A stretch of DNA of 64,000 nt. It comes from Candidatus Kaiserbacteria bacterium RIFCSPHIGHO2_01_FULL_54_36 (lineage in GTDB: Bacteria > Patescibacteriota > Minisyncoccia > Phycocordibacterales > UBA2100). Shown in pieces: positions 5,802 to 42,737 of this stretch (the stretch's first letter is position 1; every line of letters starts with the position of its first letter). Where the stretch lies: contig MFKV01000028.1 of NCBI GenBank assembly GCA_001781105.1, positions 10,428 to 74,427 on the forward strand, read 5' to 3'. The notes below the pieces were generated by a model. It was not told the origin of the DNA. It did not search any database and saw only the letters and a program-made list of their open reading frames with translations. A program made the position numbers and the translations under genes.

Positions 5802-6692
5802 TTACACGCGCATTTGAGTAAGTGCTGCTACTCTTTCTTCAACAGGTGGATGGGTCGAGAAAAGCTTAGCAATAAAGCGGCCAGCTTCGTGCGCACCGAA
5901 TGGATTTGAGATAAAAAGGTGGGCAGTGGCGTGATTTGCCTTTTGCATCGGCGCACCATAGGACGCTATCTTCTGTAAGGCGGAAGCAAGAGCATCCGGA
6001 TAGCGCGTCAGAAGCGCCCCAGACGCGTCAGCTAAGAATTCCCGCTTTCGGGAAACAGCCAACTGTATCAATTGTGCAGCGATGGGCGCAAGAATGATAG
6101 CAGCGATACCGGCAACGAGCAGCAGTGGATTTTTATTGTCGCGATTCCCTCCCCCGAAAAAGCTCATGCGCAAAAAGATATCTGAAACGATGGCGATGAA
6201 TCCAGCGAGGACTACCGCAACCGTCATCACCAGAATATCTCTGTTGCCGATATGTGAGAGCTCGTGCGCAAGGACTCCCTCTAGTTCCGAGCGATCCAGC
6301 CGCTCAAGCAGTCCGGTTGTTACGGCAACCACTGCATGTTTTGGGTCGCGTCCGGCGGCAAATGCGTTCGGAGCGGGCTCCTGCATTACGTAGACGCGTG
6401 GCTTCGGAAGCCCTGCGGTGATCGCGAGATTCTCTACAATGCGATGCAGCTCAAGGTATTCGACAGGATCAGCTTCCTTCGCGCCGGTCGCAGAGAGAGC
6501 GATCTTATCGGAGAACCAGTATGCGGTTATGTTCATTACAAGAGAAAAAGCGACCGCGGCGTAGAGAATGGCAGTATTGCCATACAGCTGCGATACGATC
6601 CATCCGAGCGCGATAACGATGACCAAGAATCCGGCCATGAGGAACCATGTCTTGCGGATGTTTTTGCCTTGTTGGGTGTAAAGAGATGCCAT
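5802..6692 (-). CDS. htpX: Zinc metalloprotease HtpX (peptidase M48)
   Basis: HELSH (HEXXH) motif, N-terminal TM helices, overall HtpX architecture. Adjacent to lemA, as in many bacteria. Confidence 0.9.
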   Translation of the reverse strand: MASLYTQQGKNIRKTWFLMAGFLVIVIALGWIVSQLYGNTAILYAAVAFSLVMNITAYWFSDKIALSATGAKEADPVEYLELHRIVENLAITAGLPKPRVYVMQEPAPNAFAAGRDPKHAVVAVTTGLLERLDRSELEGVLAHELSHIGNRDILVMTVAVVLAGFIAIVSDIFLRMSFFGGGNRDNKNPLLLVAGIAAIILAPIAAQLIQLAVSRKREFLADASGALLTRYPDALASALQKIASYGAPMQKANHATAHLFISNPFGAHEAGRFIAKLFSTHPPVEERVAALTQMRV

Positions 6693-6737: not shown

Positions 6738-7298
6738 CTAGAAGCTGACCTTGACGGGGTTCCTCGCTGCTTCTTCGCCAGCATCAAGCTGGAAGAACTC
6801 TCTTGTTTTGAATCCGAATGTACTGCCCACAATGTTCGTTGGGAATTGCTCGAGTGCGTTCTGGAGGTCTTGCACGACCGTGTTGTAGAATCGGCGAGCG
6901 GCTTGGATCTTATTCTCGGTGTCGGAGAGTTCTCGCTGGAGCTCGACGAAATTAGAGTTTGCCTTGAGATCGGGGTAGCTCTCAGAAACCGCAAAGAGCG
7001 ATTTAAGCGCGCCGGTAAGCATGTTCTCTGCTTGCGCGTGCTCAGCGACACTTTGCGCCCCCATCGCTTTTGTACGCGCATCCGTTACTTTCTGCAACGT
7101 TCCTGCTTCGTGCGCAGCGTAGCCCTTTACCGTCGCGATGAGATTTGGGATGAGGTCGTAGCGGCGCTTCAGCTGCACATCGATGTCAGACCACGCCTCT
7201 TCTGCCTGATTCGTAAGCCGGACGAATCGGTTGTACGCCCAGACAACGAACAGCACTGCCAGGACAGCGATCCCAAGAAGTATCCACGAAATGTTCAT
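6738..7298 (-). CDS. lemA: LemA family protein
   Basis: N-terminal TM helix plus a conserved LemA core (RRYDLIPNLIATVKGYAAHE...FYNTVV). Confidence 0.9.
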   Translation of the reverse strand: MNISWILLGIAVLAVLFVVWAYNRFVRLTNQAEEAWSDIDVQLKRRYDLIPNLIATVKGYAAHEAGTLQKVTDARTKAMGAQSVAEHAQAENMLTGALKSLFAVSESYPDLKANSNFVELQRELSDTENKIQAARRFYNTVVQDLQNALEQFPTNIVGSTFGFKTREFFQLDAGEEAARNPVKVSF

Positions 7299-15052: not shown

Positions 15053-15865
15053 TTACGAGATCTGCCACTTCCCTTTTTCTTTCACGATAAGCCCGTCACG
15101 CGCAAGCGAAGCGAGCGCGTTTTGAATGTTTGAACTTTTAAACTTTAAATTCTTCAGGGAAGAAGGTCCGTTGTGCAGCTGACGCAAGATCTCTCCCCGT
15201 ACCTGCCGCAGTGATCCTTCAAACTTCGATTGTTTCGTGTAGTGCGCACTTCGGACATTGTTGCGAATCCCTGAGCGCTTCAGATGCGCGCCATAATCCA
15301 TCAGCGCCCAATGCCATGTGCACGGGTCTTGCCCCTTCGCGGCGCAGTTTGCGAACGGCATGATCTCGCTATCGGGTATGGTCGACCTCGTAGGTCGACC
15401 ATGGAAGAAGTGGTACATAAGCGATGTTCGGATGTTGGTTTCGATAAGAACGTCTGGTTCGTTGAACGCAAAAACTTTCACGGCGGCTTCCGTGTACGGT
15501 CCGACCCCTGGCAATGAATGCTCTAGTGCCTTTCTGAAGTTGCCCTTGAACTTTGAAACGACCACTTTTGCCGCATCGTGCAAGTATTTCCCCCGCCGGT
15601 TGTATCCGAGCCCGCTCCAGACCTTCAAAACGTCCGAGAGTTTTGCCTCCGCGAGCACGTGAACACTCGGGAACGCTTTCAAGAGTTCTTTGTACTTTTC
15701 TTTCACTCGCGACACTTGCGTCTGCTGCAGCATGACTTCCGAAACCAGGATTCGGTATGGGTCTTTAGTCTTTCTCCACGGAAGATCGTGTCTTCCGTGC
15801 TTTTTCCAATAGCTCCAGACAGTTCGCCGGAACGTACTGATGCGACTAGAGTTGGTAGATGACAT
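15053..15865 (-). CDS. HhH-GPD base-excision DNA glycosylase, MutY-like, short form
   Basis: WRKTKDPYRILVSEVMLQQTQV and LPGVGPYTEAAV match the MutY/Nth family. No NUDIX domain, and only 2 Cys where the 4-Cys cluster would be. Confidence 0.75.
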   Translation of the reverse strand: MSSTNSSRISTFRRTVWSYWKKHGRHDLPWRKTKDPYRILVSEVMLQQTQVSRVKEKYKELLKAFPSVHVLAEAKLSDVLKVWSGLGYNRRGKYLHDAAKVVVSKFKGNFRKALEHSLPGVGPYTEAAVKVFAFNEPDVLIETNIRTSLMYHFFHGRPTRSTIPDSEIMPFANCAAKGQDPCTWHWALMDYGAHLKRSGIRNNVRSAHYTKQSKFEGSLRQVRGEILRQLHNGPSSLKNLKFKSSNIQNALASLARDGLIVKEKGKWQIS

Positions 15866-33840: not shown

Positions 33841-34278
33841 CTACGCCAATATTTTTTCAAGTTTGGTGAAGCTCGAAGACCAGCCCTGCTCGTGCATCTG
33901 CTTAGACTTTTCACCGGCAAGGCGCTCATGGGTCATCGTCATCTCGGTCTTACTGCCCATAGCCTTGAATTCTACCGTTACCACCGTCTCTGCGTTCATC
34001 TCCGCGCCACCGTCGCCTTCCCACTGCCAGGTAAAGACTAACTTTTTCGGGCGTTCTACCGTAATGAATTTGCCTTTGAGCGGATGCATTTCCCCGTCGG
34101 GAGAATGCATCGTCAGGCGGTAGACACCTCCCGGTGTGGCACAGTATTCGTGAATATCGTTGGTAAATCCTTCGGGCCCGTACCATTTCGCTACCTGTAC
34201 CGGATCAATCCACGCATCGAACACATTCTCAGGCGTGGCATCAAACGTGCGCTCTATAACCAATGTTGCGTCTGCCAT
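33841..34278 (-). CDS. SRPBCC family protein (AHSA1/START-like)
   Basis: TLVIERTFDATPENVFDAWIDPVQVAKWYGP... Start at MADATLV, giving a 2-nt gap to the upstream ArsR gene. Confidence 0.75.
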   Translation of the reverse strand: MADATLVIERTFDATPENVFDAWIDPVQVAKWYGPEGFTNDIHEYCATPGGVYRLTMHSPDGEMHPLKGKFITVERPKKLVFTWQWEGDGGAEMNAETVVTVEFKAMGSKTEMTMTHERLAGEKSKQMHEQGWSSSFTKLEKILA

Positions 34279-34279
34279 A

Positions 34280-34615
34280 CTATTGTTTCTTTTTACTCTT
34301 TGTAATGTGTCTCCCCAGGCGATCAAAGCTCCCCTGCCAAAAGGCTGCCTGTGATGTGAGCCAGGTGCTGTATTCCCTGAACGCCTTTTGGTTGAGTACA
34401 CAGATGCGCACGCGTCCGCGCTTGTGCGAGGAAATGATGCCCACATCCTCAAGAATGCGCGCGTGCTTCAGCGCTGCCGGAAGCGAGATTGCAAACGGTT
34501 CGGCCATTTTCGAAAGCGACATAGCGCCGCCATGGTGCAGCCGCTCGACCATGCGCCGCCTCACCGACTGGCACACCTCCTCCCATCCGCGCTCCACATC
34601 CCTATACTTAACCAT
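34280..34615 (-). CDS. ArsR/SmtB family transcriptional regulator
   Basis: HTH region LSKMAEPFAISLPAALKHARILEDVGII. Forms a classic ArsR-SRPBCC pair. Confidence 0.8.
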   Translation of the reverse strand: MVKYRDVERGWEEVCQSVRRRMVERLHHGGAMSLSKMAEPFAISLPAALKHARILEDVGIISSHKRGRVRICVLNQKAFREYSTWLTSQAAFWQGSFDRLGRHITKSKKKQ

Positions 34616-37418: not shown

Positions 37419-37841
37419 CTACAGTTCACCTTTATTTGCCAAGGCAACAAATCTTTCCAAAGTTACTATCTTTACTTTATCTGTATCTTTAAAAAATTTA
37501 TTCAGTCCACCAGCTATATAAAAATCTCTGAGCTTCCATCCATCACCGCCTAAAATGACATATGCCTTTGAATACACACCTTTGTTATCAATGAGTGCTT
37601 CGGCAAGACACATGACCTCAAAAGGAACTTTTTGTTCTGCCGTACCACTCGTTTGTTGCCATTTGGATGAGATGAGTATTTTTTCTCCGCCTTTTTCTGC
37701 AATAGCATCGACCATATGGCGGCCTTTTCCGCCAAGTCGTATGCCGATATGCATTTGCTTTGTGTAGTCATAGCCGCCTCTTTTTAAAGCAGGTAGCACC
37801 ATATTTTCCAAAACTCCTCCGGTATTAGTATTTCGCGACAT
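37419..37841 (-). CDS. Hypothetical 140-aa protein in the R-M-like island (possible second nuclease or accessory subunit)
   Basis: Overlaps the MTase stop by 17 nt. Contains VDAIAEKGGEKILISSKWQQTSGTAEQK (a D...E-Q-K arrangement). No family recognised. Confidence 0.5.
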   Translation of the reverse strand: MSRNTNTGGVLENMVLPALKRGGYDYTKQMHIGIRLGGKGRHMVDAIAEKGGEKILISSKWQQTSGTAEQKVPFEVMCLAEALIDNKGVYSKAYVILGGDGWKLRDFYIAGGLNKFFKDTDKVKIVTLERFVALANKGEL

Positions 37842-38673
37842 TAACCAGATCCTTATACCTTTTCACAGAAAGATCAAGGTAGTTCTTTTCAAGGTCGATT
37901 CCGATAAACTTCCTACCGTGCGCTGCAGCTGCTAACCCCGTTGTTGAGCTGCCGGCAAACGGGTCGAGAACAATATCGTCTTTTCTTGTACTAGCGAGGA
38001 CAATTCGTCTTAAAAGCTCCAGGGGTTTCTGGGTCGGATGTTTTCCAAATTTCTTCTCTCCAGGTTTAGGGGTTCCAATGGACCACACGGAGCGCATTTG
38101 CAGACCTGGTTTCTTTAGAAAATCTCTGCCCCAATCTCCCGCTTTCATCAGATCATAATCGAAATGATGCTTTGCTTTCTTTTCCTTTCTCGCCCAAATC
38201 AGAGTCTCATGACTCGCCGTAAAGAATCGGCAGCTCAAATTTGGCGACGCATTCGGCTTGAACCACGAGATGTCATTAAGGATGTGGTAGTTGAGCGATT
38301 GCAGGGCGTGTCCGCATTGGTAAATGGAATGATACGTTCCGCTTACCCAGAGCGTTCCGTGCGGTTTGAGGACTCGTCTGCAGGCTTCGAGCCATCGGTA
38401 GTGAAAGTCATAATCGTCCTCAAACCCCTTACTCTTGTCCCAATCTCCCTTATTCACACTTACCATCTTTCCTGCGTGTACCGAGAAGCCACCATTCGAA
38501 AGATTGTACGGCGGATCCGCAAAAATCATGTCGATAGAATTTTCAGGAAGCGAACTGAGCAAATCTATCGAGTCGGCATTGTAGAGAACAAAGTTGTCCT
38601 GTTTGAAATAGGGCTTGAACTCGACAGACGCGAGGATTTTCTGTCTTGGTTTCTGAAAGGTTACGAGCGCCAT
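37825..38673 (-). CDS. Beta-class amino DNA methyltransferase (N6-adenine or N4-cytosine; DPPY motif IV precedes motif I FAGSSTTG)
   Basis: IFADPPYN and LDPFAGSSTTGLAA. Start set at MALVTF (38673), which is preceded by TATAAT-N7-ATG. The track start at 38706 lies inside that promoter. Confidence 0.85.
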   Translation of the reverse strand: MALVTFQKPRQKILASVEFKPYFKQDNFVLYNADSIDLLSSLPENSIDMIFADPPYNLSNGGFSVHAGKMVSVNKGDWDKSKGFEDDYDFHYRWLEACRRVLKPHGTLWVSGTYHSIYQCGHALQSLNYHILNDISWFKPNASPNLSCRFFTASHETLIWARKEKKAKHHFDYDLMKAGDWGRDFLKKPGLQMRSVWSIGTPKPGEKKFGKHPTQKPLELLRRIVLASTRKDDIVLDPFAGSSTTGLAAAAHGRKFIGIDLEKNYLDLSVKRYKDLVNVAKY

Positions 38674-38813
38674 GTGGATTATTATACCCCACGCGCGGTT
38701 GCTCATTTTGGGGAATCGGGGCCGTATTGCGGGGGTGGAGTGCGGGTGCCATAGTTGGGGTCGAAACTTAACCCAGCTCTTTGAGGTGGAAAGAGCTCTA
38801 CTTGGAGGCTACA

Positions 38814-39530
38814 ATGCGCACTTTGCTTGGCGCAGCCCTCTGCGCCTTTATCCTCGCCTTCTCTACGGTCGCCGCCTCGGCGCAGCGCAAGGAGGAGGTC
38901 GACCTTCTCCTCGTCCTCGCGGCCGATGTGTCGGGCAGCGTCGATCCGGATGAATTCGCGCTCCAGCGCCGCGGACACGCGGAGGCACTGCTTCACCCGC
39001 GCGTTCAGAAAGCGATTACCTCGGGCATGCTCGGAAAGATCGCCGTCACCTACATCGAGTGGTCCGGCGATTACCAGCAGACGGTCATCGTCGACTGGAC
39101 GATCATCGATGGCCTCGCTTCAGCGCAACACTTCGGCGCTCAGATGGTGGAAGTTGAGCGACCGCGCGGCAGGAGCACCGCCATCGGCGCAGCTATCGAC
39201 TTTTCTGTCAAACGACTCGAGGCGGCGCCGTATCACGCACACCGCCGGACAATCGACATCTCCGCCGACGGCACGAACACATCTTCGAATCTCGAGAAGG
39301 CGCGGAGTGAGGCGGTTGCGAAAGGGATCACGATCAACGTCCTCGCGATCCTCAGCGTGCTTCCTTCGCCGAGCTTCCCCTGGCACACGCATCCTGTTGG
39401 CGGACTCGAGAATTACTTCCGCAGTCATGTGATCGGCGGGCCGGGGTCGTTCGTCGTCGTCGCCGAAGAACACAGAAGCTTCGGCGAAGCGATCGTCAAG
39501 AAACTCATCGCCGAGATCGCGATGCGGTGA
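38814..39530 (+). CDS. Secreted DUF1194-like von Willebrand factor A-fold protein
   Basis: Signal peptide MRTLLGAALCAFILAFSTVAASA, then LLLVLAADVSGSVD (DxSxS MIDAS-like). Locally higher GC. Confidence 0.7.
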   Translation: MRTLLGAALCAFILAFSTVAASAQRKEEVDLLLVLAADVSGSVDPDEFALQRRGHAEALLHPRVQKAITSGMLGKIAVTYIEWSGDYQQTVIVDWTIIDGLASAQHFGAQMVEVERPRGRSTAIGAAIDFSVKRLEAAPYHAHRRTIDISADGTNTSSNLEKARSEAVAKGITINVLAILSVLPSPSFPWHTHPVGGLENYFRSHVIGGPGSFVVVAEEHRSFGEAIVKKLIAEIAMR

Positions 39531-39558
39531 GCACCGTATCGAAAATGCGAGAAGGCCC

Positions 39559-39595
39559 GGCGCAATGCGCACGGGCCTTCTATCTTTTCTGCTCT
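39559..39595 (+). terminator. Rho-independent terminator
   Basis: GAGAAGGCCCGGCGCAATGCGCACGGGCCTTCTATCTTTTCTG. Confidence 0.65.
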
Positions 39596-39774
39596 ATGAG
39601 GTGGAGCTGTTTTCGGAAGGTTTTGTGATGGGGAGTAGCGCGCTCCACATACCTATTCAAGTATTTTGCAAAACACTAGAATAGATCTCATCCCACAAAT
39701 CTTCATTTTGAACGAATTGACCTACGTACGATGCCGTGGCATTATATCGGCCGGCCCAAACCAGGAGGTACCCC

Positions 39775-40338
39775 ATGGACCGCATTAAAGATAGGCGTGG
39801 TGATCGGTGCAGTGGACTCGGACTTTTGCTCGACTCGAAAGGCGGCCGTTGGCCCGATTTCGACGCGCTCGGCCCTCGCCTCAAGAAAGTGACTGAACAC
39901 CCGTTTGGCTTCAGTCTGCCTGAACACATCGGCCACGGGGCAGCCTACATCCTTCCCTGTCGCGGTTCTGACGATTCCGTCAAAGACATGGCAACGTGTA
40001 TTCGCTGCTATGCAGCTGGACACGGAAAATCATCCGGCGTTCAGCGCCTTCGGATATTCACGGTCCGGCAGGTGAGCGATATGGCGGAGCGGCGCTATCT
40101 CTTCGAGGTTCAGTTCACCAACATGATGTTCATCGGCGGTGACTGCACCTACTTCAGTGGAGGTGGTGGTAGCGCGACGCAGCAGTTGCGCGGCATCTTC
40201 CTCGCACTGTCGAGCATCTACGACATCGACGTCGAAGAAGAGGTTGTCATGATGGAGAGCCTCGTCAACCTCAGCGATTCCGTCCTTGAAGATCTCGGGC
40301 TGCGAATGGAGATGCGACAGCTCAAGAAGGCATCGTGA
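39775..40338 (+). CDS. Hypothetical protein
   Basis: About 187 aa with Cys/His pairs (CRGSDD...CIRCYAAGHG). Start chosen at MDRIKD. Followed by a strong terminator. Confidence 0.5.
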   Translation: MDRIKDRRGDRCSGLGLLLDSKGGRWPDFDALGPRLKKVTEHPFGFSLPEHIGHGAAYILPCRGSDDSVKDMATCIRCYAAGHGKSSGVQRLRIFTVRQVSDMAERRYLFEVQFTNMMFIGGDCTYFSGGGGSATQQLRGIFLALSSIYDIDVEEEVVMMESLVNLSDSVLEDLGLRMEMRQLKKAS

Positions 40339-40357
40339 TGGTGCCTACACGCTTCCA

Positions 40358-40390
40358 TGCGACGAAAAGCCCCGGGCATGCCCGGGGCTT
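40358..40390. terminator. Bidirectional terminator AAAAGCCCCGGGCATGCCCGGGGCTTTT
   Basis: Perfect 10-bp GC stem flanked by A and T runs, between convergent genes. Confidence 0.8.
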
Positions 40391-40428
40391 TTATACATTT
40401 CAACCTTATTTTAGAGGATTGATTCGAG

Positions 40429-41007
40429 TTAGCCTTGGGATTCGGTGGCGGGGTTGAGGGAATGGCGCTTGCCGGCAAGCGCGGAGGCCAGGATCTGCTT
40501 TACTCGCTTCTCCCGGGTTGCGGGTTGTTTTCCGCGAAGGATCCATCGATAAAGCATCCGTTTTTGCGAGGGTGGGTGGGATTCAAATGCTTGCTTTGCC
40601 TTCGCGCTCTTTGCGAGCGCCTTTTCGAGCTCGATTGGCATGTCGGGATTCTTCGGGATTCCGTGATCGTGTATGGGCTTTGCCTTACCGAGTTTGTAAA
40701 ATCGCATCCCCTCAGGGCTCATCCTCCCCTCTTTGATAAGCTTCTTTGCATAAGAAATAGTATTGTCGCTCCACTTGCTCTTCTCATTGCGCCGCGAGAA
40801 ATGCCGCAAGAAAGTATCTTCGTCAAGGCGTTTGATGATCGTGTCTATCCAGCCATAGCAGATCGCCTCTTCGATAAGCTCGCGATGCGTGGGGAAAGGC
40901 TTCCCCGTGTGTTTCTTGTGCACAACGACAGACATCTTTGTTTCCTTCTTATGATTCCTCTTCAGCCACTTCCTAAAGTCCTTCGCGCTGAATACAACAA
41001 TCTGCAT
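40429..41007 (-). CDS. YdeI/OmpD-associated (PF13376-like) family protein
   Basis: ...FRKWLKRNHKKE...ELIEEAICYGWIDTIIKRLDEDTF... Confidence 0.65.
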   Translation of the reverse strand: MQIVVFSAKDFRKWLKRNHKKETKMSVVVHKKHTGKPFPTHRELIEEAICYGWIDTIIKRLDEDTFLRHFSRRNEKSKWSDNTISYAKKLIKEGRMSPEGMRFYKLGKAKPIHDHGIPKNPDMPIELEKALAKSAKAKQAFESHPPSQKRMLYRWILRGKQPATREKRVKQILASALAGKRHSLNPATESQG

Positions 41008-41024
41008 AATCAATTTACATCCCG

Positions 41025-41297
41025 CTATTGCAGTCTTTTGCAAAACACTAGTATAGATTCTGCGCGCGGTGTCAGTTTGTGACGGACAGCGCTTCCCTGG
41101 TTCCGTTTAAAAACGAGGCCGGCGATTGCCAGTTTGCGTACGTGATCCGAAGCATTTTCATATCCTATTTTTAGACGCTGTGAAATATCTTCGACCGACA
41201 GTTCAGGTTCTCGTTTTAACAAATCGAGGATTTGCAGACGCCGATGATTCGCAAATCCTTTGACTATTCGTTCCAGCTGTCTGTATGTAGCTGCCAT
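41025..41297 (-). CDS. ArsR-family HTH transcriptional regulator (about 90 aa)
   Basis: FANHRRLQILDLL...SVEDISQRLKIGYENASDHVRKLAIAGLV. Start at MAATYRQ; the track start is a TTG inside a repeated motif. Confidence 0.7.
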   Translation of the reverse strand: MAATYRQLERIVKGFANHRRLQILDLLKREPELSVEDISQRLKIGYENASDHVRKLAIAGLVFKRNQGSAVRHKLTPRAESILVFCKRLQ

Positions 41298-41353
41298 AGA
41301 TCGATTGTACTCTATTGCAGTCTTTTGCAAAACACTAGCATAGGAATAAAGAT

Positions 41354-41650
41354 CTAGATGGTGAGTGTGAAAGCAATCGTATCGCCTTCGGCGAGGCCTT
41401 CCGCGCGGCGCGCGGCTGCTTTGAGCGGGAGGAGGTAGGTGCCCGAGCGTTTGTCGGGAAAGATAGATGTCTTCCAGCTTGTTTTACCGATAGTCACCTT
41501 CACACGAACCGAGCCGAATCCCCTGCGCACTCTCGTATGCTTTTCCTTTATCTCTTCCGAAAGCTTCTTATCGACATGGGCGAAATGCCAGACACCTTGC
41601 TCGCCCGGCCAGAGCCACACCTTTCCTTTCGCCTTGTACACCTGCGCCAT
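41354..41650 (-). CDS. DUF1905 domain protein
   Basis: ...VRRGFGSVRVKVTIGKTSWKTSIFPDKR... DUF1905 frequently partners with the YdeI-family domain. Confidence 0.7.
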   Translation of the reverse strand: MAQVYKAKGKVWLWPGEQGVWHFAHVDKKLSEEIKEKHTRVRRGFGSVRVKVTIGKTSWKTSIFPDKRSGTYLLPLKAAARRAEGLAEGDTIAFTLTI

Positions 41651-41660
41651 GCGCCAGGGT

Positions 41661-42737
41661 TTAGGCTGTCCCGAAGCGGCGGCGGTCGTAGAGTAGCGAG
41701 AGAAATGCGAGTACTGCGAATATGGTGGGGATCCAGTAGCCAGGCAGGTAGAGCTGCGCCATTTCCCACAGGCTGATCCACTGTATCGAGACAGAGCCCG
41801 TCACGGTCGCGACGTTATCCAGAAGCGCCTGATCCTGCGTCTTCACCGCCTTCTGCCAATCTTCGGCGTACTTGATATTGGCATCCGCGTTCTTTAGCTG
41901 TGCCGAATACGATGCGTTCTCGTTGCTGAGACGCGCTCTTAGTGTGATCACCTCATTGGTGAGCGCCTGGATCTGTGCTTGCACCTCTACAGTCTGGGGC
42001 TGTGCGCGAAGTGAAGTGAGCTGCTGCTCGTCGGCGTTGATCTGGGATTGGAGCGACTGCGCGGCACTCGTGTGCGCACTGACTATTTTTTGGCGTGCCG
42101 CTTTGTAATCCGCGAGTGTCGAGTCTGCTTGCTTCTGCTGCTCCTCGATGCTCTGCTTTTGCGGCAAGAGATTCTGCGAAGAAATGTTGAGCGTAAGAAA
42201 GCGGCTATCTACCAGGCCCTCGAGCTCAGTGCGGAAGGCATCGTATTTGCTCATAGGGACCGCGAAATTGACGTAGCCGTATTTCGGCGAGCTCGATTCC
42301 TGATCGATGCGGCCGTCGTATCCGCGCACGGTCGTCTCGACACGACGCACTAATCCCCCCACATCGCGGGTGCGCATTTCGGCGTTGTAATTAACTTTCA
42401 AGAATTCTCGCGTGTCGGTGATGGGTACGTCTTGGCCCGGGTACGGGTAGGGATAATATGCTTCTCTCCCCGGCATGCCTTGCGGCGCCATGCTTGCTCC
42501 ATTGGTAGCACCCATGTCGTACATGGGTTTAGAAGGCATGGAGGGTGGCGAATAGCTGACGGAATCCTCCACTACGCCTCGTGAGCCACCGCCTTCCCCG
42601 TAACCCATAGGCATCGGGTAATACGAAGAAGGGCGCGCGATCGCTACAAAGGAGCCGAGGGCAAGGAGCACAAGGACGATCGTCAGCCATGAGATACGGC
42701 GCGGCCAAAAGCGAGCGCGGACTATTTCATCGGTCAT
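41661..42737 (-). CDS. DUF4349-like membrane protein (N- and C-terminal TM helices, Gln-rich coiled coil)
   Basis: 358-aa ORF. Family call is tentative. Confidence 0.55.
   Translation of the reverse strand: MTDEIVRARFWPRRISWLTIVLVLLALGSFVAIARPSSYYPMPMGYGEGGGSRGVVEDSVSYSPPSMPSKPMYDMGATNGASMAPQGMPGREAYYPYPYPGQDVPITDTREFLKVNYNAEMRTRDVGGLVRRVETTVRGYDGRIDQESSSPKYGYVNFAVPMSKYDAFRTELEGLVDSRFLTLNISSQNLLPQKQSIEEQQKQADSTLADYKAARQKIVSAHTSAAQSLQSQINADEQQLTSLRAQPQTVEVQAQIQALTNEVITLRARLSNENASYSAQLKNADANIKYAEDWQKAVKTQDQALLDNVATVTGSVSIQWISLWEMAQLYLPGYWIPTIFAVLAFLSLLYDRRRFGTA

Follow-up and report, generated by a model that had tools for sequence, protein, structure and literature searches.

A stretch of 64 kb from a member of Candidatus Kaiserbacteria (Patescibacteria/CPR; hereafter, the window) contains three copies of a 32-nt palindrome, two of which bracket a gene for a 90-aa protein with an ArsR/SmtB-type winged helix (hereafter, the regulator). 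We consider it probable, at roughly 70%, that the palindrome is the operator of this protein and that the two form an autorepressor-operator system conserved across the lineage. The demonstrated part of this model comprises the universality of the bracket among relatives of the regulator gene, selection at the level of the DNA, the overlap of the upstream site with the regulator promoter and the covariation of regulator and site. From these sequence features, we infer binding and repression as well as the roles of the downstream and intragenic copies.

Three palindromes and the regulator gene in the window

The palindromes map to 39653-39684 (copy 1), 41025-41056 (copy 2; hereafter, O2) and 41312-41343 (copy 3; hereafter, O1). 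They are imperfect, have the consensus CTATTCTAGTGTTTTGCAAAACACTAGAATAG and are 88-100% identical in pairwise comparisons, with exact 21-nt matches at 39664-39684, 41036-41056 and 41323-41343. The bare core TTTTGCAAAA, for which a core-mutated form would be TTTTCGAAAA, occurs exactly three times in the window, each time within one of the palindromes, and no fourth palindrome was found in the 64 kb with up to three mismatches tolerated. A chance origin of the three copies is excluded, as 100 dinucleotide-preserving shuffles gave 0 matches. An earlier note on this DNA had described a motif shared by these three sites. All three exist and were found where expected, except that its coordinates for copies 2 and 3 were about 4 nt too low, and the repeat is longer than it had described. 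The stems are A+T-rich and followed by A/G-rich sequence, unlike the G+C-rich stem and T run of an intrinsic terminator, and a terminator scan reported none at the three palindromes. Scanned against Rfam with a permissive threshold, positions 39000-42000 gave a sub-threshold isrJ match over the terminator and nothing else.

The regulator gene (41025-41297, minus strand) lies between O1 and O2. Its product matches Pfam HTH_5 (PF01022; 28.2 bits, cut-off 22), also passes the cut-offs of HTH_20 (27.8, cut-off 27) and MarR_2 (29.6, cut-off 27) and scores marginally under that of NCBIfam NF033788 (metalloregulator ArsR/SmtB; 51.6 bits, E 6e-14, cut-off 55), the last of which counts against the autorepressor model. 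An AF2 model (mean pLDDT 77) has the order a1-a2-a3-a4-b1-b2-a5 with helices at residues 2-15, 18-29, 35-42 and 46-58, strands at 62-67 and 70-75 and a last helix at 77-89. The top Foldseek matches of this model are SqrR, CadC, HlyU, PagR, CzrA and SmtB (TM 0.72-0.79), and the predicted fold is that of the ArsR/SmtB family. Most likely, the protein binds DNA as a dimer. Sensor motifs known in this family are a CXC in a3, an Asp/His/Glu set in a5 and the Cys pair of SqrR/BigR. No metal or thiol sensor motif was found in the regulator: in a 29-sequence alignment, ELSVEDI occupies the a3 position where sensors have ELCVCDL, the His/Asp/Glu set of a5 is missing, and there is one Cys instead of a pair. 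With these residues lacking, no signal that the regulator might sense is evident. The single Cys (Cys86) is invariant and is encoded by a TGC at the center of O2.

O1 is located 5' of the regulator gene, reads CTATGCTAGTGTTTTGCAAAAGACTGCAATAG on the minus strand and ends 14 nt from the regulator ATG (41297). The predicted regulator promoter (41304-41331, minus strand) consists of the −35 element TTTGCA (41331-41326), which sits inside the palindrome core, a 16-nt spacer and the −10 element TACAAT (41309-41304). Only 6 nt separate TACAAT from the ATG, which implies a leaderless mRNA. Because O1 overlaps the −35 element and spacer, we propose that the regulator represses its own synthesis.

O2 covers the last nine codons of the regulator gene (ILVFCKRLQ), its TAG stop codon (41025-41027) and 2 nt of the preceding Ser codon. 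It ends 17 nt from the ATG (41007) of a co-oriented downstream gene for a 192-aa YdeI/OmdA-domain protein (40429-41007, minus strand; Pfam OmdA, 60 bits). The description of O1 and O2 in the earlier note as abutting start codons was thus roughly right. Its assignment of O2 to the YdeI promoter does not hold, because O2 lies in the regulator's own coding end whatever gene follows and is, therefore, part of the regulator gene. The 71 proteins encoded in the slot after O2 among relatives represent 94 Pfam families, on the basis of which we rejected a dedicated pathway regulator. This slot also holds housekeeping genes (SHMT, a YchF-type GTPase, ABC-F and a DEAD helicase). That the gene after O2 is not conserved also speaks against the autorepressor model.

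A gene for a 98-aa DUF1905 protein (41354-41650, minus strand; Pfam DUF1905, 89.6 bits) is located directly upstream of O1, its stop codon 10 nt before the palindrome. The earlier note took DUF1905 and YdeI to be a known pairing that is apparently co-regulated here. DUF1905 and YdeI recur beside the regulator although the downstream gene varies: YdeI comes after the regulator and O2 in L027 and is provided with a palindrome of its own in L162, while DUF1905 adjoins the regulator, upstream or downstream, in at least nine distinct loci (L120, L148, L149, L164, L175/176, L198, L217/220 and L224 among the DUF1905-adjacent loci). DUF1905 comes after O2 in L120, L175/176 and L224, and a site belonging to it is present in L217/L220. 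In L148, L149, L164, L198 and the window, it precedes O1 and lacks such a site. Co-regulation of DUF1905 in the window is not supported, since DUF1905 is upstream of the operator and no copy lies ahead of it. Most regulator loci have neither gene. The literature on DUF1905/YdeI added nothing useful.

Copy 1 (CTATTCAAGTATTTTGCAAAACACTAGAATAG) is intergenic. It lies 1372 nt from O2 and ends 90 nt from the ATG (39775) of a gene for a 187-aa hypothetical protein (39775-40338, plus strand) that has the Shine-Dalgarno sequence AGGAGG and belongs to a small family of unknown function. This copy had been placed in the promoter of the hypothetical gene. It is upstream of the gene, but the best sigma-70-like promoter (TTGACC-17-CATTAT at 39717-39745, plus strand) begins about 33 nt downstream of copy 1, which, therefore, does not overlap it. 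The hypothetical gene is a possible target of copy 1. For its product, a word-indexed search returned only the protein itself, while an exhaustive search returned ~50 distant relatives; in one of the contexts retrieved for these, just 17 nt precede the gene. The convergent hypothetical and YdeI genes are separated by a G+C-rich palindrome (40365-40392; 28 nt, perfect) with A and T runs on its sides, which resembles a bidirectional terminator that would end both transcription units.

The two-site bracket in relatives

Using the peptide patterns [VI]KGFANHR and SDH[VIL]RKLA[IV], which are independent of the palindrome, we identified 67 distinct complete regulator genes. All 67 have a palindrome upstream and a palindrome over the stop codon, the latter covering the last nine codons and the stop codon, and the same bracket is present in 5/5 lineages retrieved by exact protein look-up. 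In L064, the second site is shifted 80 nt beyond the stop codon, and the bracket is still kept. The spacing between O1 and O2 is 285-340 nt with a mode of 293 nt; no helical (10.5-nt) periodicity is evident in it, and so it gives no support for DNA looping.

The promoter arrangement of O1, which is compatible with repression, recurs as well. In the relatives, a TAnnnT hexamer is located 5-8 nt before an in-frame start codon in 57 of the 67 genes and at exactly 6 nt in 45. The upstream palindrome mostly ends 2-7 nt before this −10 element, and overall the distance ranges from −8 to +29 nt, the −10 element being a hexamer separate from the palindrome. In silico, an inverted repeat over the regulator's own promoter, as in autoregulation, is predicted in the window, and 67/67 relatives have an upstream palindrome.

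Selection on the tail of the gene acts on the DNA and not on the peptide alone. In the part of the gene covered by O2, Leu is encoded by CTA in 66 of 68 cases, whereas outside this part CTA makes up 4.7% of the Leu codons. Similarly, Phe is always encoded by TTT (68/68; 53% elsewhere in the gene), Lys by AAA (68/68; 49% elsewhere) and Cys by TGC (68/68).

Diverged paralogues with changes in predicted wing or recognition-helix residues carry matching altered palindromes at both ends of the gene. The paralogues in L076 and L143 (70-72% identity; wing residues KRNDAK/R) have TCATTCTAACGTTTTGCAAAACGTTAGAATGA at both ends, while those with a GYIN helix (L083 and L133) have half-sites of the GGAATTTTGCAAAATTCC type. 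In the L130 paralogue (62%), the recognition helix INFKT replaces IGYEN and a new core, TTCTTGAGAA, is present at O1 and O2; alongside this core, FCK in the C-terminus has become FLR. Within the palindrome, arm positions 6/27 and 7/26 vary independently (52 symmetric sites compared to 51.9 expected), which argues for two protein half-sites and against a base-paired stem. The earlier suggestion that the ArsR-like protein acts through the motif is therefore strengthened: based on the joint occurrence of gene and site in 67/67 cases, the promoter overlap and the paralogue covariation, the palindrome is very probably its operator.

In the mechanism that we propose, a regulator dimer on O1 would block the leaderless promoter and cause autorepression. 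For O2, one or both of two roles are most likely: its occupancy might hide the promoter of the next gene downstream (here, YdeI), or O2 with its bound protein might act as a roadblock to transcription reading through from the regulator promoter. Copy 1 could be an auxiliary or target operator for the neighboring hypothetical gene. Because copy 1 and many distal sites lie upstream of promoters, simple steric repression cannot explain every site.

Sites elsewhere and alternative readings

The small local regulon proposed earlier gives way to a much wider system. The protein-operator pair is present across Kaiserbacteria, Adlerbacteria, Taylorbacteria, Nomurabacteria and other Paceibacteria-type Patescibacteria, with sites also away from the regulator. 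Among the matches listed, two-armed sites occur only in Patescibacteria-group lineages or in records titled just 'bacterium', while records named as other taxa show a single arm, in line with chance matches to the half-site pattern. Per genome, there are a handful to about a dozen further copies as rough bounds, with at least 120 stretches in the genome-collection scan, and 27 of ~31 extra sites are within 1.1 kb of the regulator gene. Further copies sit before, or in frame within, housekeeping genes including TatD, PurN-like and MiaA. Many distal intergenic copies are 40-130 nt upstream of a separate TAnnnT-N6-ATG promoter and not over it.

According to the earlier note, an abundance of the motif in coding regions would speak against a regulon. 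About 17 of 56 (~30%) distal sites among the matches listed do lie in genes, and a classical promoter-level repressor needs none of these. Yet these copies use one reading frame (in-frame peptide, YSSVLQNTxI) and conserved codon positions. They appear to be selected, and they widen the operator interpretation instead of refuting it. A protein search found 48 TatD homologues with the motif. In TatD, 24-27 residues separate the anchors when the motif is present and 24-29 when it is absent, and there are decayed intermediates. Similarly, the HhH-GPD glycosylase of the window has the same length across the site as the L078 protein. Equal-length replacement together with intermediate or decayed forms supports an origin in place and not by insertion. 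The copy in Tgt (L134) sits within a stretch that interrupts the Pfam match, and an insertion is possible there.

The coding sites are at the heart of a second reading, which we consider unlikely: the pair could be more than an autorepressor at a promoter, namely a lineage-wide system of DNA landmarks in which the palindrome has been selected into coding DNA, both around the stop codon of the regulator gene itself and within essential genes such as tatD, purN, miaA, tgt, truB and nifS, and the bound protein would serve as an elongation roadblock or as an AspA/ParB-like nucleation point. In its specific form, in which the palindrome, instead of or besides being an operator, would organize, segregate or silence DNA as a chromosome landmark like those of AspA or ParB/parS, we find it improbable. 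AspA of pNOB8 is among the significant sequence and structure matches of the regulator, the conservation of protein and site across a wide lineage is unusual, the extra sites cluster around the regulator gene, and sites occupy conserved positions inside conserved housekeeping genes, with one inside the regulator's own gene; B. subtilis parS likewise lies within spo0J. However, the best matches are ordinary ArsR/SmtB repressors and not AspA, and no gene for a ParA-like or partner NTPase or an adaptor was found near the regulator in the window, L004, L008, L012 and L013. Moreover, the geometry of O1 is that of a promoter operator in nearly all relatives, and sites per genome appear few and scattered.

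RNA polymerase rather than the ArsR-like protein could be the reader of the palindrome if this were a bidirectional promoter module with an outward TAGAAT-like −10 element in each arm. TAGAAT is present within the consensus arms, promoters in these genomes are as a rule of the leaderless TAnnnT-N6-ATG type, and several genes begin 3-10 nt after a copy, e.g., a class II aaRS gene in L041, an ORF in L132 judged PurC-like by eye and a flavoprotein-like ORF in L079. We nevertheless regard this explanation as quite improbable. The regulator's own −10 element is outside the palindrome, a −35-like element with proper spacing is missing from the latter, and the changes in paralogues hit the core and positions 8-11 while TAGAAT is kept. 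Strict two-fold symmetry with an invariant 10-bp core is not a promoter trait, and mid-gene copies would fire within essential genes.

It is very improbable that the palindrome is a selfish or structural hairpin element of the REP/RPE kind that spread into genes, with the flanked gene encoding its factor as in a REPtron. As a perfect palindrome, the consensus is predicted to fold at −16.2 kcal/mol, copies are dispersed and in frame inside genes, the copy in Tgt may be an insertion, and the gene between two copies recalls RAYT genes, which are flanked by REPs. However, O1 and O2 RNAs fold no better than shuffled sequences (z −0.70 and −0.13, respectively), and positions 6/27 and 7/26 show no stem covariation; based on the folding z-scores and the arm-covariation count, an RNA hairpin was rejected. 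In addition, TatD and the HhH-GPD glycosylase show equal-length replacement, and profile matches of the 90-aa product of the flanked gene are to the winged helix only, with no nuclease or transposase domain. A scan of viral contigs gave 10 single one-arm matches and no regulator gene, consistent with chance half-matches, and we set aside a phage or mobile origin on this basis.

Barely credible is an explanation of the repeats as attC-like recombination or cassette-boundary sites for swapping the downstream accessory gene: although the gene after O2 differs even between close relatives (TspO is downstream in L012 and upstream in L013 with an identical regulator protein), the slot is rich in cassette-like functions (GNAT, NUDIX, MazG, NYN and DUFs), and restriction-modification islands often lie close by, the annotated loci show no associated integrase or recombinase, housekeeping genes also fill the slot, and intragenic copies in essential genes cannot be cassette ends.

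Relation to known systems and implications

An autorepressor-operator system of this kind is closest to the ArsR/SmtB autorepressors without a metal site (HlyU, PagR, NolR and SdpR) and the sensors SmtB, CzrA, CadC and SqrR, which have the same fold and a similar size (~90-120 aa) and likewise use an inverted-repeat operator over their own promoter. The operators of SmtB and CzrA are typically 12-2-12 inverted repeats. In contrast, the candidate operator described here extends over a 32-bp palindrome whose 10-bp core is invariant, every member has a second operator in the last codons of the gene, and the pair is kept across a class-level lineage.

Operators in coding DNA are known from E. coli, where lacO2 is in lacZ, galOI in galE and PurR boxes in purB and purR. 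The layout is the same in that one operator is at the promoter and one in coding or transcribed DNA, acting by looping or as an elongation roadblock, and as with PurR, purine and one-carbon genes (PurN-like, the PurC-like ORF and SHMT) are among those with sites. The system in Patescibacteria differs in the protein family, in the absence of visible helical phasing and in the position of the internal operator, which lies at the very 3' end, takes in the stop codon and determines the sequence of the C-terminal peptide. AspA, like the regulator, is an ArsR-like winged-helix protein of ~90 aa with a palindrome beside its own gene, and parS sites are found within coding genes, parB/spo0J among them, and are conserved between phylogenetically very distant organisms. 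Unlike in these systems, no partner ATPase or adaptor gene is adjacent and the site overlaps a promoter; the similarity to AspA is also lower than that to ordinary ArsR repressors. Rickettsia palindromic elements and REP/RAYT are dispersed palindromes, some of them in frame in housekeeping genes, and a gene may have two flanking copies. By comparison, we observed no length change in TatD and the HhH-GPD glycosylase, no stem covariation and no transposase, and about ten copies per genome instead of hundreds. In full-text searches of the literature, we found no description of the motif or of a conserved Patescibacteria regulator.

Gene regulation in Patescibacteria (CPR) is almost unexplored; these ultra-small bacteria are largely uncultivated and have few transcription factors. 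A regulator-operator pair kept over many candidate phyla of the Parcubacteria/Paceibacteria group is a rare testable handle on it. With a 32-bp consensus, natural specificity variants and a leaderless promoter context, the system is approachable with synthetic DNA and recombinant protein in a culture-free manner. It is also a case of dual coding, in which the operator dictates the C-terminal residues and stop codon of its presumed binder, and the same operator is built codon by codon into housekeeping genes. If the landmark reading were true, the bound protein could be a programmable roadblock that globally brakes nucleotide, tRNA and DNA-repair functions, or else it would serve chromosome organization in bacteria with very few regulators. 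If the intragenic copies are functional, they would suggest that roadblock-type or architectural control is a main mode of regulation in reduced genomes.

Palindrome copies and promoter geometry in the window

The window contains three copies of a 32-nt imperfect palindrome that are 88 to 100% identical to one another. Copy 1 (39653-39684) is intergenic and lies 5' of a plus-strand gene for a 187-aa hypothetical protein (39775-40338). Copy 2, here O2 (41025-41056), lies between the genes for a 90-aa winged-helix regulator and a YdeI/OmdA protein and overlaps the 3' end of the former, while copy 3, here O1 (41312-41343), lies between the DUF1905 and regulator genes. The three repeats described in the earlier note are, therefore, real, but its coordinates for copies 2 and 3 were approximately 4 nt too low; because it had picked up only the right-hand 25 nt of the unit, it missed the full 32 nt and the palindromy. 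In the window, the 10-nt core TTTTGCAAAA is present at the three palindrome sites only. We found no fourth copy in the 64 kb at ≤3 mismatches and no matches in shuffled sequence.

In minus-strand order, the genes are DUF4349 (41661-42737), DUF1905 (41354-41650, on the upstream side of O1), the regulator gene (41025-41297, flanked by O1 and O2), and the YdeI/OmdA gene (40429-41007, after O2). A G+C-rich perfect 28-nt palindrome between the convergent hypothetical and YdeI genes (40365-40392; AAAAGCCCCGGGCA/TGCCCGGGGCTTTT) looks like a bidirectional intrinsic terminator. A TACAAT hexamer begins 2 nt past O1 and is followed, after 6 nt, by the regulator ATG; in a consensus promoter scan, it pairs at 16 nt with a TTTGCA located in the O1 palindrome core. 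This is the predicted geometry of a leaderless promoter under an operator. O2 is more than an intergenic element: it reads ..S I L V F C K R L Q stop on the minus strand and holds the last nine codons and the TAG stop of the regulator gene, 17 nt from the YdeI ATG. In the consensus scan, copy 1 lies 33 nt 5' of the best sigma-70-like promoter of the hypothetical gene.

Just beyond DUF1194 and copy 1, an N6_N4_Mtase DNA methyltransferase and a PDDEXK_11 nuclease are encoded as a pair (37419-38706, minus strand) in a 1-kb stretch at 40% G+C versus ~53% elsewhere. Another assembly of the same species has an IS1595 transposase at this position (L002, 12641-13516), which marks the stretch as a variable island. 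At ~33841-34615 (minus strand), an AHSA1/SRPBCC gene comes after another gene of the ArsR type (HTH_20, 111 aa). This is a common pairing, and no palindromes were found at it.

The bracketed regulator gene in related genomes

We fetched 80 metagenome loci using two peptide patterns, one near the N-terminus of the regulator and one in its recognition helix; thus, the sampling was independent of the DNA motif. All 67 distinct complete regulator genes with sufficient flank are bracketed by a palindrome upstream and a palindrome over the stop codon, with a center-to-center spacing of 285 to 340 nt (mode 293). The bracket is also present in 5/5 lineages from an exact-protein look-up, irrespective of the neighboring genes. 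Codon choice in the regulator tail differs from that in the rest of the gene: Leu is encoded by CTA in 66/68 cases (4.7% in the rest of the gene), Phe by TTT in 68/68 (53%), and Lys by AAA in 68/68 (49%). These codon data show that the constraint on the tail is at the level of the DNA sequence and not merely of the peptide.

A TAnnnT hexamer lies 5 to 8 nt before the in-frame start codon in 57 of the 67 regulator genes (exactly 6 nt in 45), and the upstream palindrome usually ends 2 to 7 nt from this hexamer. The arrangement TAnnnT-~6 nt-ATG is also found at regulator genes in loci L147-L226 and at many unrelated genes (L039, L043, L059, L084, L103, L104, and L123), so leaderless mRNAs seem to be common in these genomes. 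At many palindrome copies in related loci, a 20- to 50-nt purine-rich tract comes next in the 3' direction on the sense strand (GAAAAAGGTGGGG and similar; e.g., L004 10309-10360, L008 10288-10340, L193 ~6362-6400, and L219 ~6550-6590); no such tract follows any of the window's three copies.

In 77/90 loci, O2 is followed within 250 nt by a co-oriented gene, which in some relatives overlaps or abuts the regulator's stop. The identity of the gene in this slot is almost never repeated, with 94 Pfam families among 71 non-redundant proteins; DUF1905 and GNAT are found three times each and NYN, MazG, NUDIX, and RNase_T two times each. DUF1905 is the most recurrent regulator neighbor: it adjoins O1 on the upstream side in the window plus four further lineages and lies immediately downstream of O2 in three lineages, in one of which it overlaps the regulator stop in an ATGA, and it has a palindrome of its own in L217/L220. 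YdeI is the gene after O2 in L027, and in L162 it comes with a separate palindrome of its own. Of the putatively co-regulated set, DUF1905 and YdeI recur beside the regulator; the slot after O2 is mostly taken by other genes. The 187-aa hypothetical protein belongs to a small family and has a confidently predicted fold; a structure search with its model gave no informative match, and one homolog has a DUF1905 gene nearby. TspO is a further recurrent neighbor. For the same regulator protein (P0022), it is downstream in L012 (10001-10770) and upstream in L013 (4848-5616), and this placement on opposite sides documents rearrangement around the regulator; in L170/L171, TspO is 2.1 kb away with its own palindrome.

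In diverged paralogs, regulator and sites change together. L076 and L143 have altered wing residues and ..CTAACGTTTTGCAAAACGTTAG.. at both gene ends; in L083 and L133, GYIN replaces GYEN and half-sites are of the GGAATTTTGCAAAATTCC type. In L130, the recognition helix contains INFKT, O1 and O2 alike have the novel core TTCTTGAGAA, and the C-terminal FCK has become FLR in step with this core. L209 has a second regulator gene flanked by AGCT-variant palindromes, and in L064, the coding palindrome has decayed and a perfect copy lies 80 nt beyond the stop. Because both flanks keep a site when site sequence or position is altered, the bracket itself is maintained, which suggests that flanking the gene on both sides is important. 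Together, covariation and the kept bracket are strong indirect evidence that the regulator binds the palindrome. As a separate observation, the standard ..AGTG..CACT.. system and a paralogous regulator/operator system of the ..AACG..CGTT.. or ..AGCT.. type can be neighbors in a single genome (L209, with two regulator genes; L143; L076; L004 7912-7943; and L161 ~7048-7079). L083 and L133 also have hybrid sites with one half-site of each type.

Palindrome copies across genomes and inside housekeeping genes

A pattern scan of one genome per species returned at least 120 stretches, of which at least 74, with at least 111 sites, have full two-armed sites. By record label, the 74 listed stretches are from Kaiser-, Adler-, Taylor-, Nomura-, or Moranbacteria, Parcubacteria, Paceibacterota, the Patescibacteria group, "Candidatus Saccharibacteria" (co-assembly MAG labels), or plain "bacterium." Among the matches listed, records named as other taxa have no two-armed sites; they match in one arm only, as expected by chance. 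The 111 listed sites have the perfect palindrome CTATTCTAGTGTTTTGCAAAACACTAGAATAG as their consensus. Half of them (55) lie ≤1.2 kb from a regulator gene and 56 elsewhere. Extra sites in the loci found through the protein cluster within ~1.1 kb of the regulator, and the density at >2 kb is ~1 site per 100 kb; one MAG has at least nine standard and two variant sites over five contigs. From this density and count, each genome would have, by a rough estimate, somewhere between a handful and about a dozen sites.

Genes in the fetched loci were called crudely as ORFs save where Pfam was run, and families at intergenic sites were read from translations except for tRNA-synt_2, SHMT, and the YchF-type GTPase (Pfam). 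Some distal intergenic sites lie 3 to 20 nt ahead of the start codon (class II aaRS, PurC-like, flavoprotein-like, and PPDK/PEP-synthase-like ORFs), and others lie 40 to 130 nt 5' of a separate leaderless promoter (YchF-type GTPase, SHMT, a GatB-like ORF, and others).

Approximately 17 of the 56 listed distal sites are intragenic, always in the single frame open through the palindrome, which yields the peptide [Y/C]-S-S-[V/I]-L-Q-[N/K]-T-x-I. They are in genes for a PurN-like formyltransferase (four loci), TatD (three), IPP transferase (MiaA), HhH-GPD glycosylase, and a class-V aminotransferase (NifS-like) (two each), and TruB, TGT, ArgRS, and an ORF of no assigned family (one each); in orthologs, the site is at the same codon position. 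Among the 108 of the best 120 TatD homologs listed that have both anchor motifs, 48 have the motif peptide, 13 decayed versions, and 47 none, and the anchor spacing is equal or shorter in motif-bearing homologs. At the position where L067 and L078 carry the motif, the HhH-GPD gene of the window (15053-15865) has none and matches L078 in length. The lack of added length with the motif, together with the decayed forms, indicates that the TatD and HhH-GPD copies arose in place by substitution and not by insertion. An exception may be the TGT gene (queuine tRNA-ribosyltransferase; L134 1-1043, minus strand), in which the palindrome is in a segment at ~residues 105-135 that splits the Pfam match in two and may have been inserted.

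The regulator and models for its action

Among the matches listed in a protein search (>2,000 clusters), the nearest proteins belong to Candidatus Kaiserbacteria and further Patescibacteria of the Parcubacteria/Paceibacteria type; the best 120 clusters are 78 to 93% identical and named Kaiserbacteria, Adlerbacteria, Taylorbacteria, or "Paceibacterota." The regulator passes the Pfam HTH_5 threshold and scores slightly under the NCBIfam ArsR/SmtB cut-off. Its predicted fold is a1-a2-a3-a4-b1-b2-a5, and the top structural matches of the model are SqrR, CadC, HlyU, PagR, CzrA, and SmtB; the archaeal centromere protein AspA is also among the sequence/structure matches. In an alignment, the metal or thiol sensor residues of the ArsR/SmtB family are absent, and the sole cysteine is encoded by TGC at the O2 center. 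By predicted fold and Pfam model, it is a member of this family, albeit a sensor-less one.

In the reading that we favor, with a probability of roughly 0.7, an ArsR/SmtB-type dimer of the regulator would bind the palindrome. At O1, the bound dimer would occlude the leaderless promoter, so that autoregulation would be negative; at O2, it would occlude the promoter of the next gene or block read-through from the regulator's promoter; and copy 1 and the distal promoter-proximal copies would be further targets. The existence and universality of the sites, DNA-level selection, promoter overlap, and regulator/site covariation are observations; binding, the sign of regulation, and the roles of O2 and the intragenic copies are computational proposals. 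The closest analogs in working principle are the ArsR-type autorepressors that act at inverted-repeat operators, repressors with an additional operator within coding DNA (lacO2, galOI, and PurR on purB and purR), and, for the intragenic copies, parS-type sites.

Among the alternatives, an AspA/ParB-like centromere or nucleoid-landmark role is much less probable than the favored reading; it would explain the intragenic copies, but a partner gene is lacking at the loci examined. A cassette-boundary role lacks a recombinase at the annotated loci. A pure promoter module is disfavored because the regulator −10 is separate from the palindrome and variably spaced, and the core changes are specific to paralogs. 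An RNA/DNA hairpin or REP/RPE-like element is also disfavored, as the palindrome arms vary independently, O1 and O2 of the window fold no better than shuffles, and the tested intragenic copies are not insertions.

In a full-text literature search, we found no description of lineage-wide conservation of the regulator-palindrome pair, of an obligatory bracket with an operator in the regulator's own terminal codons, or of in-frame operators built into housekeeping genes.
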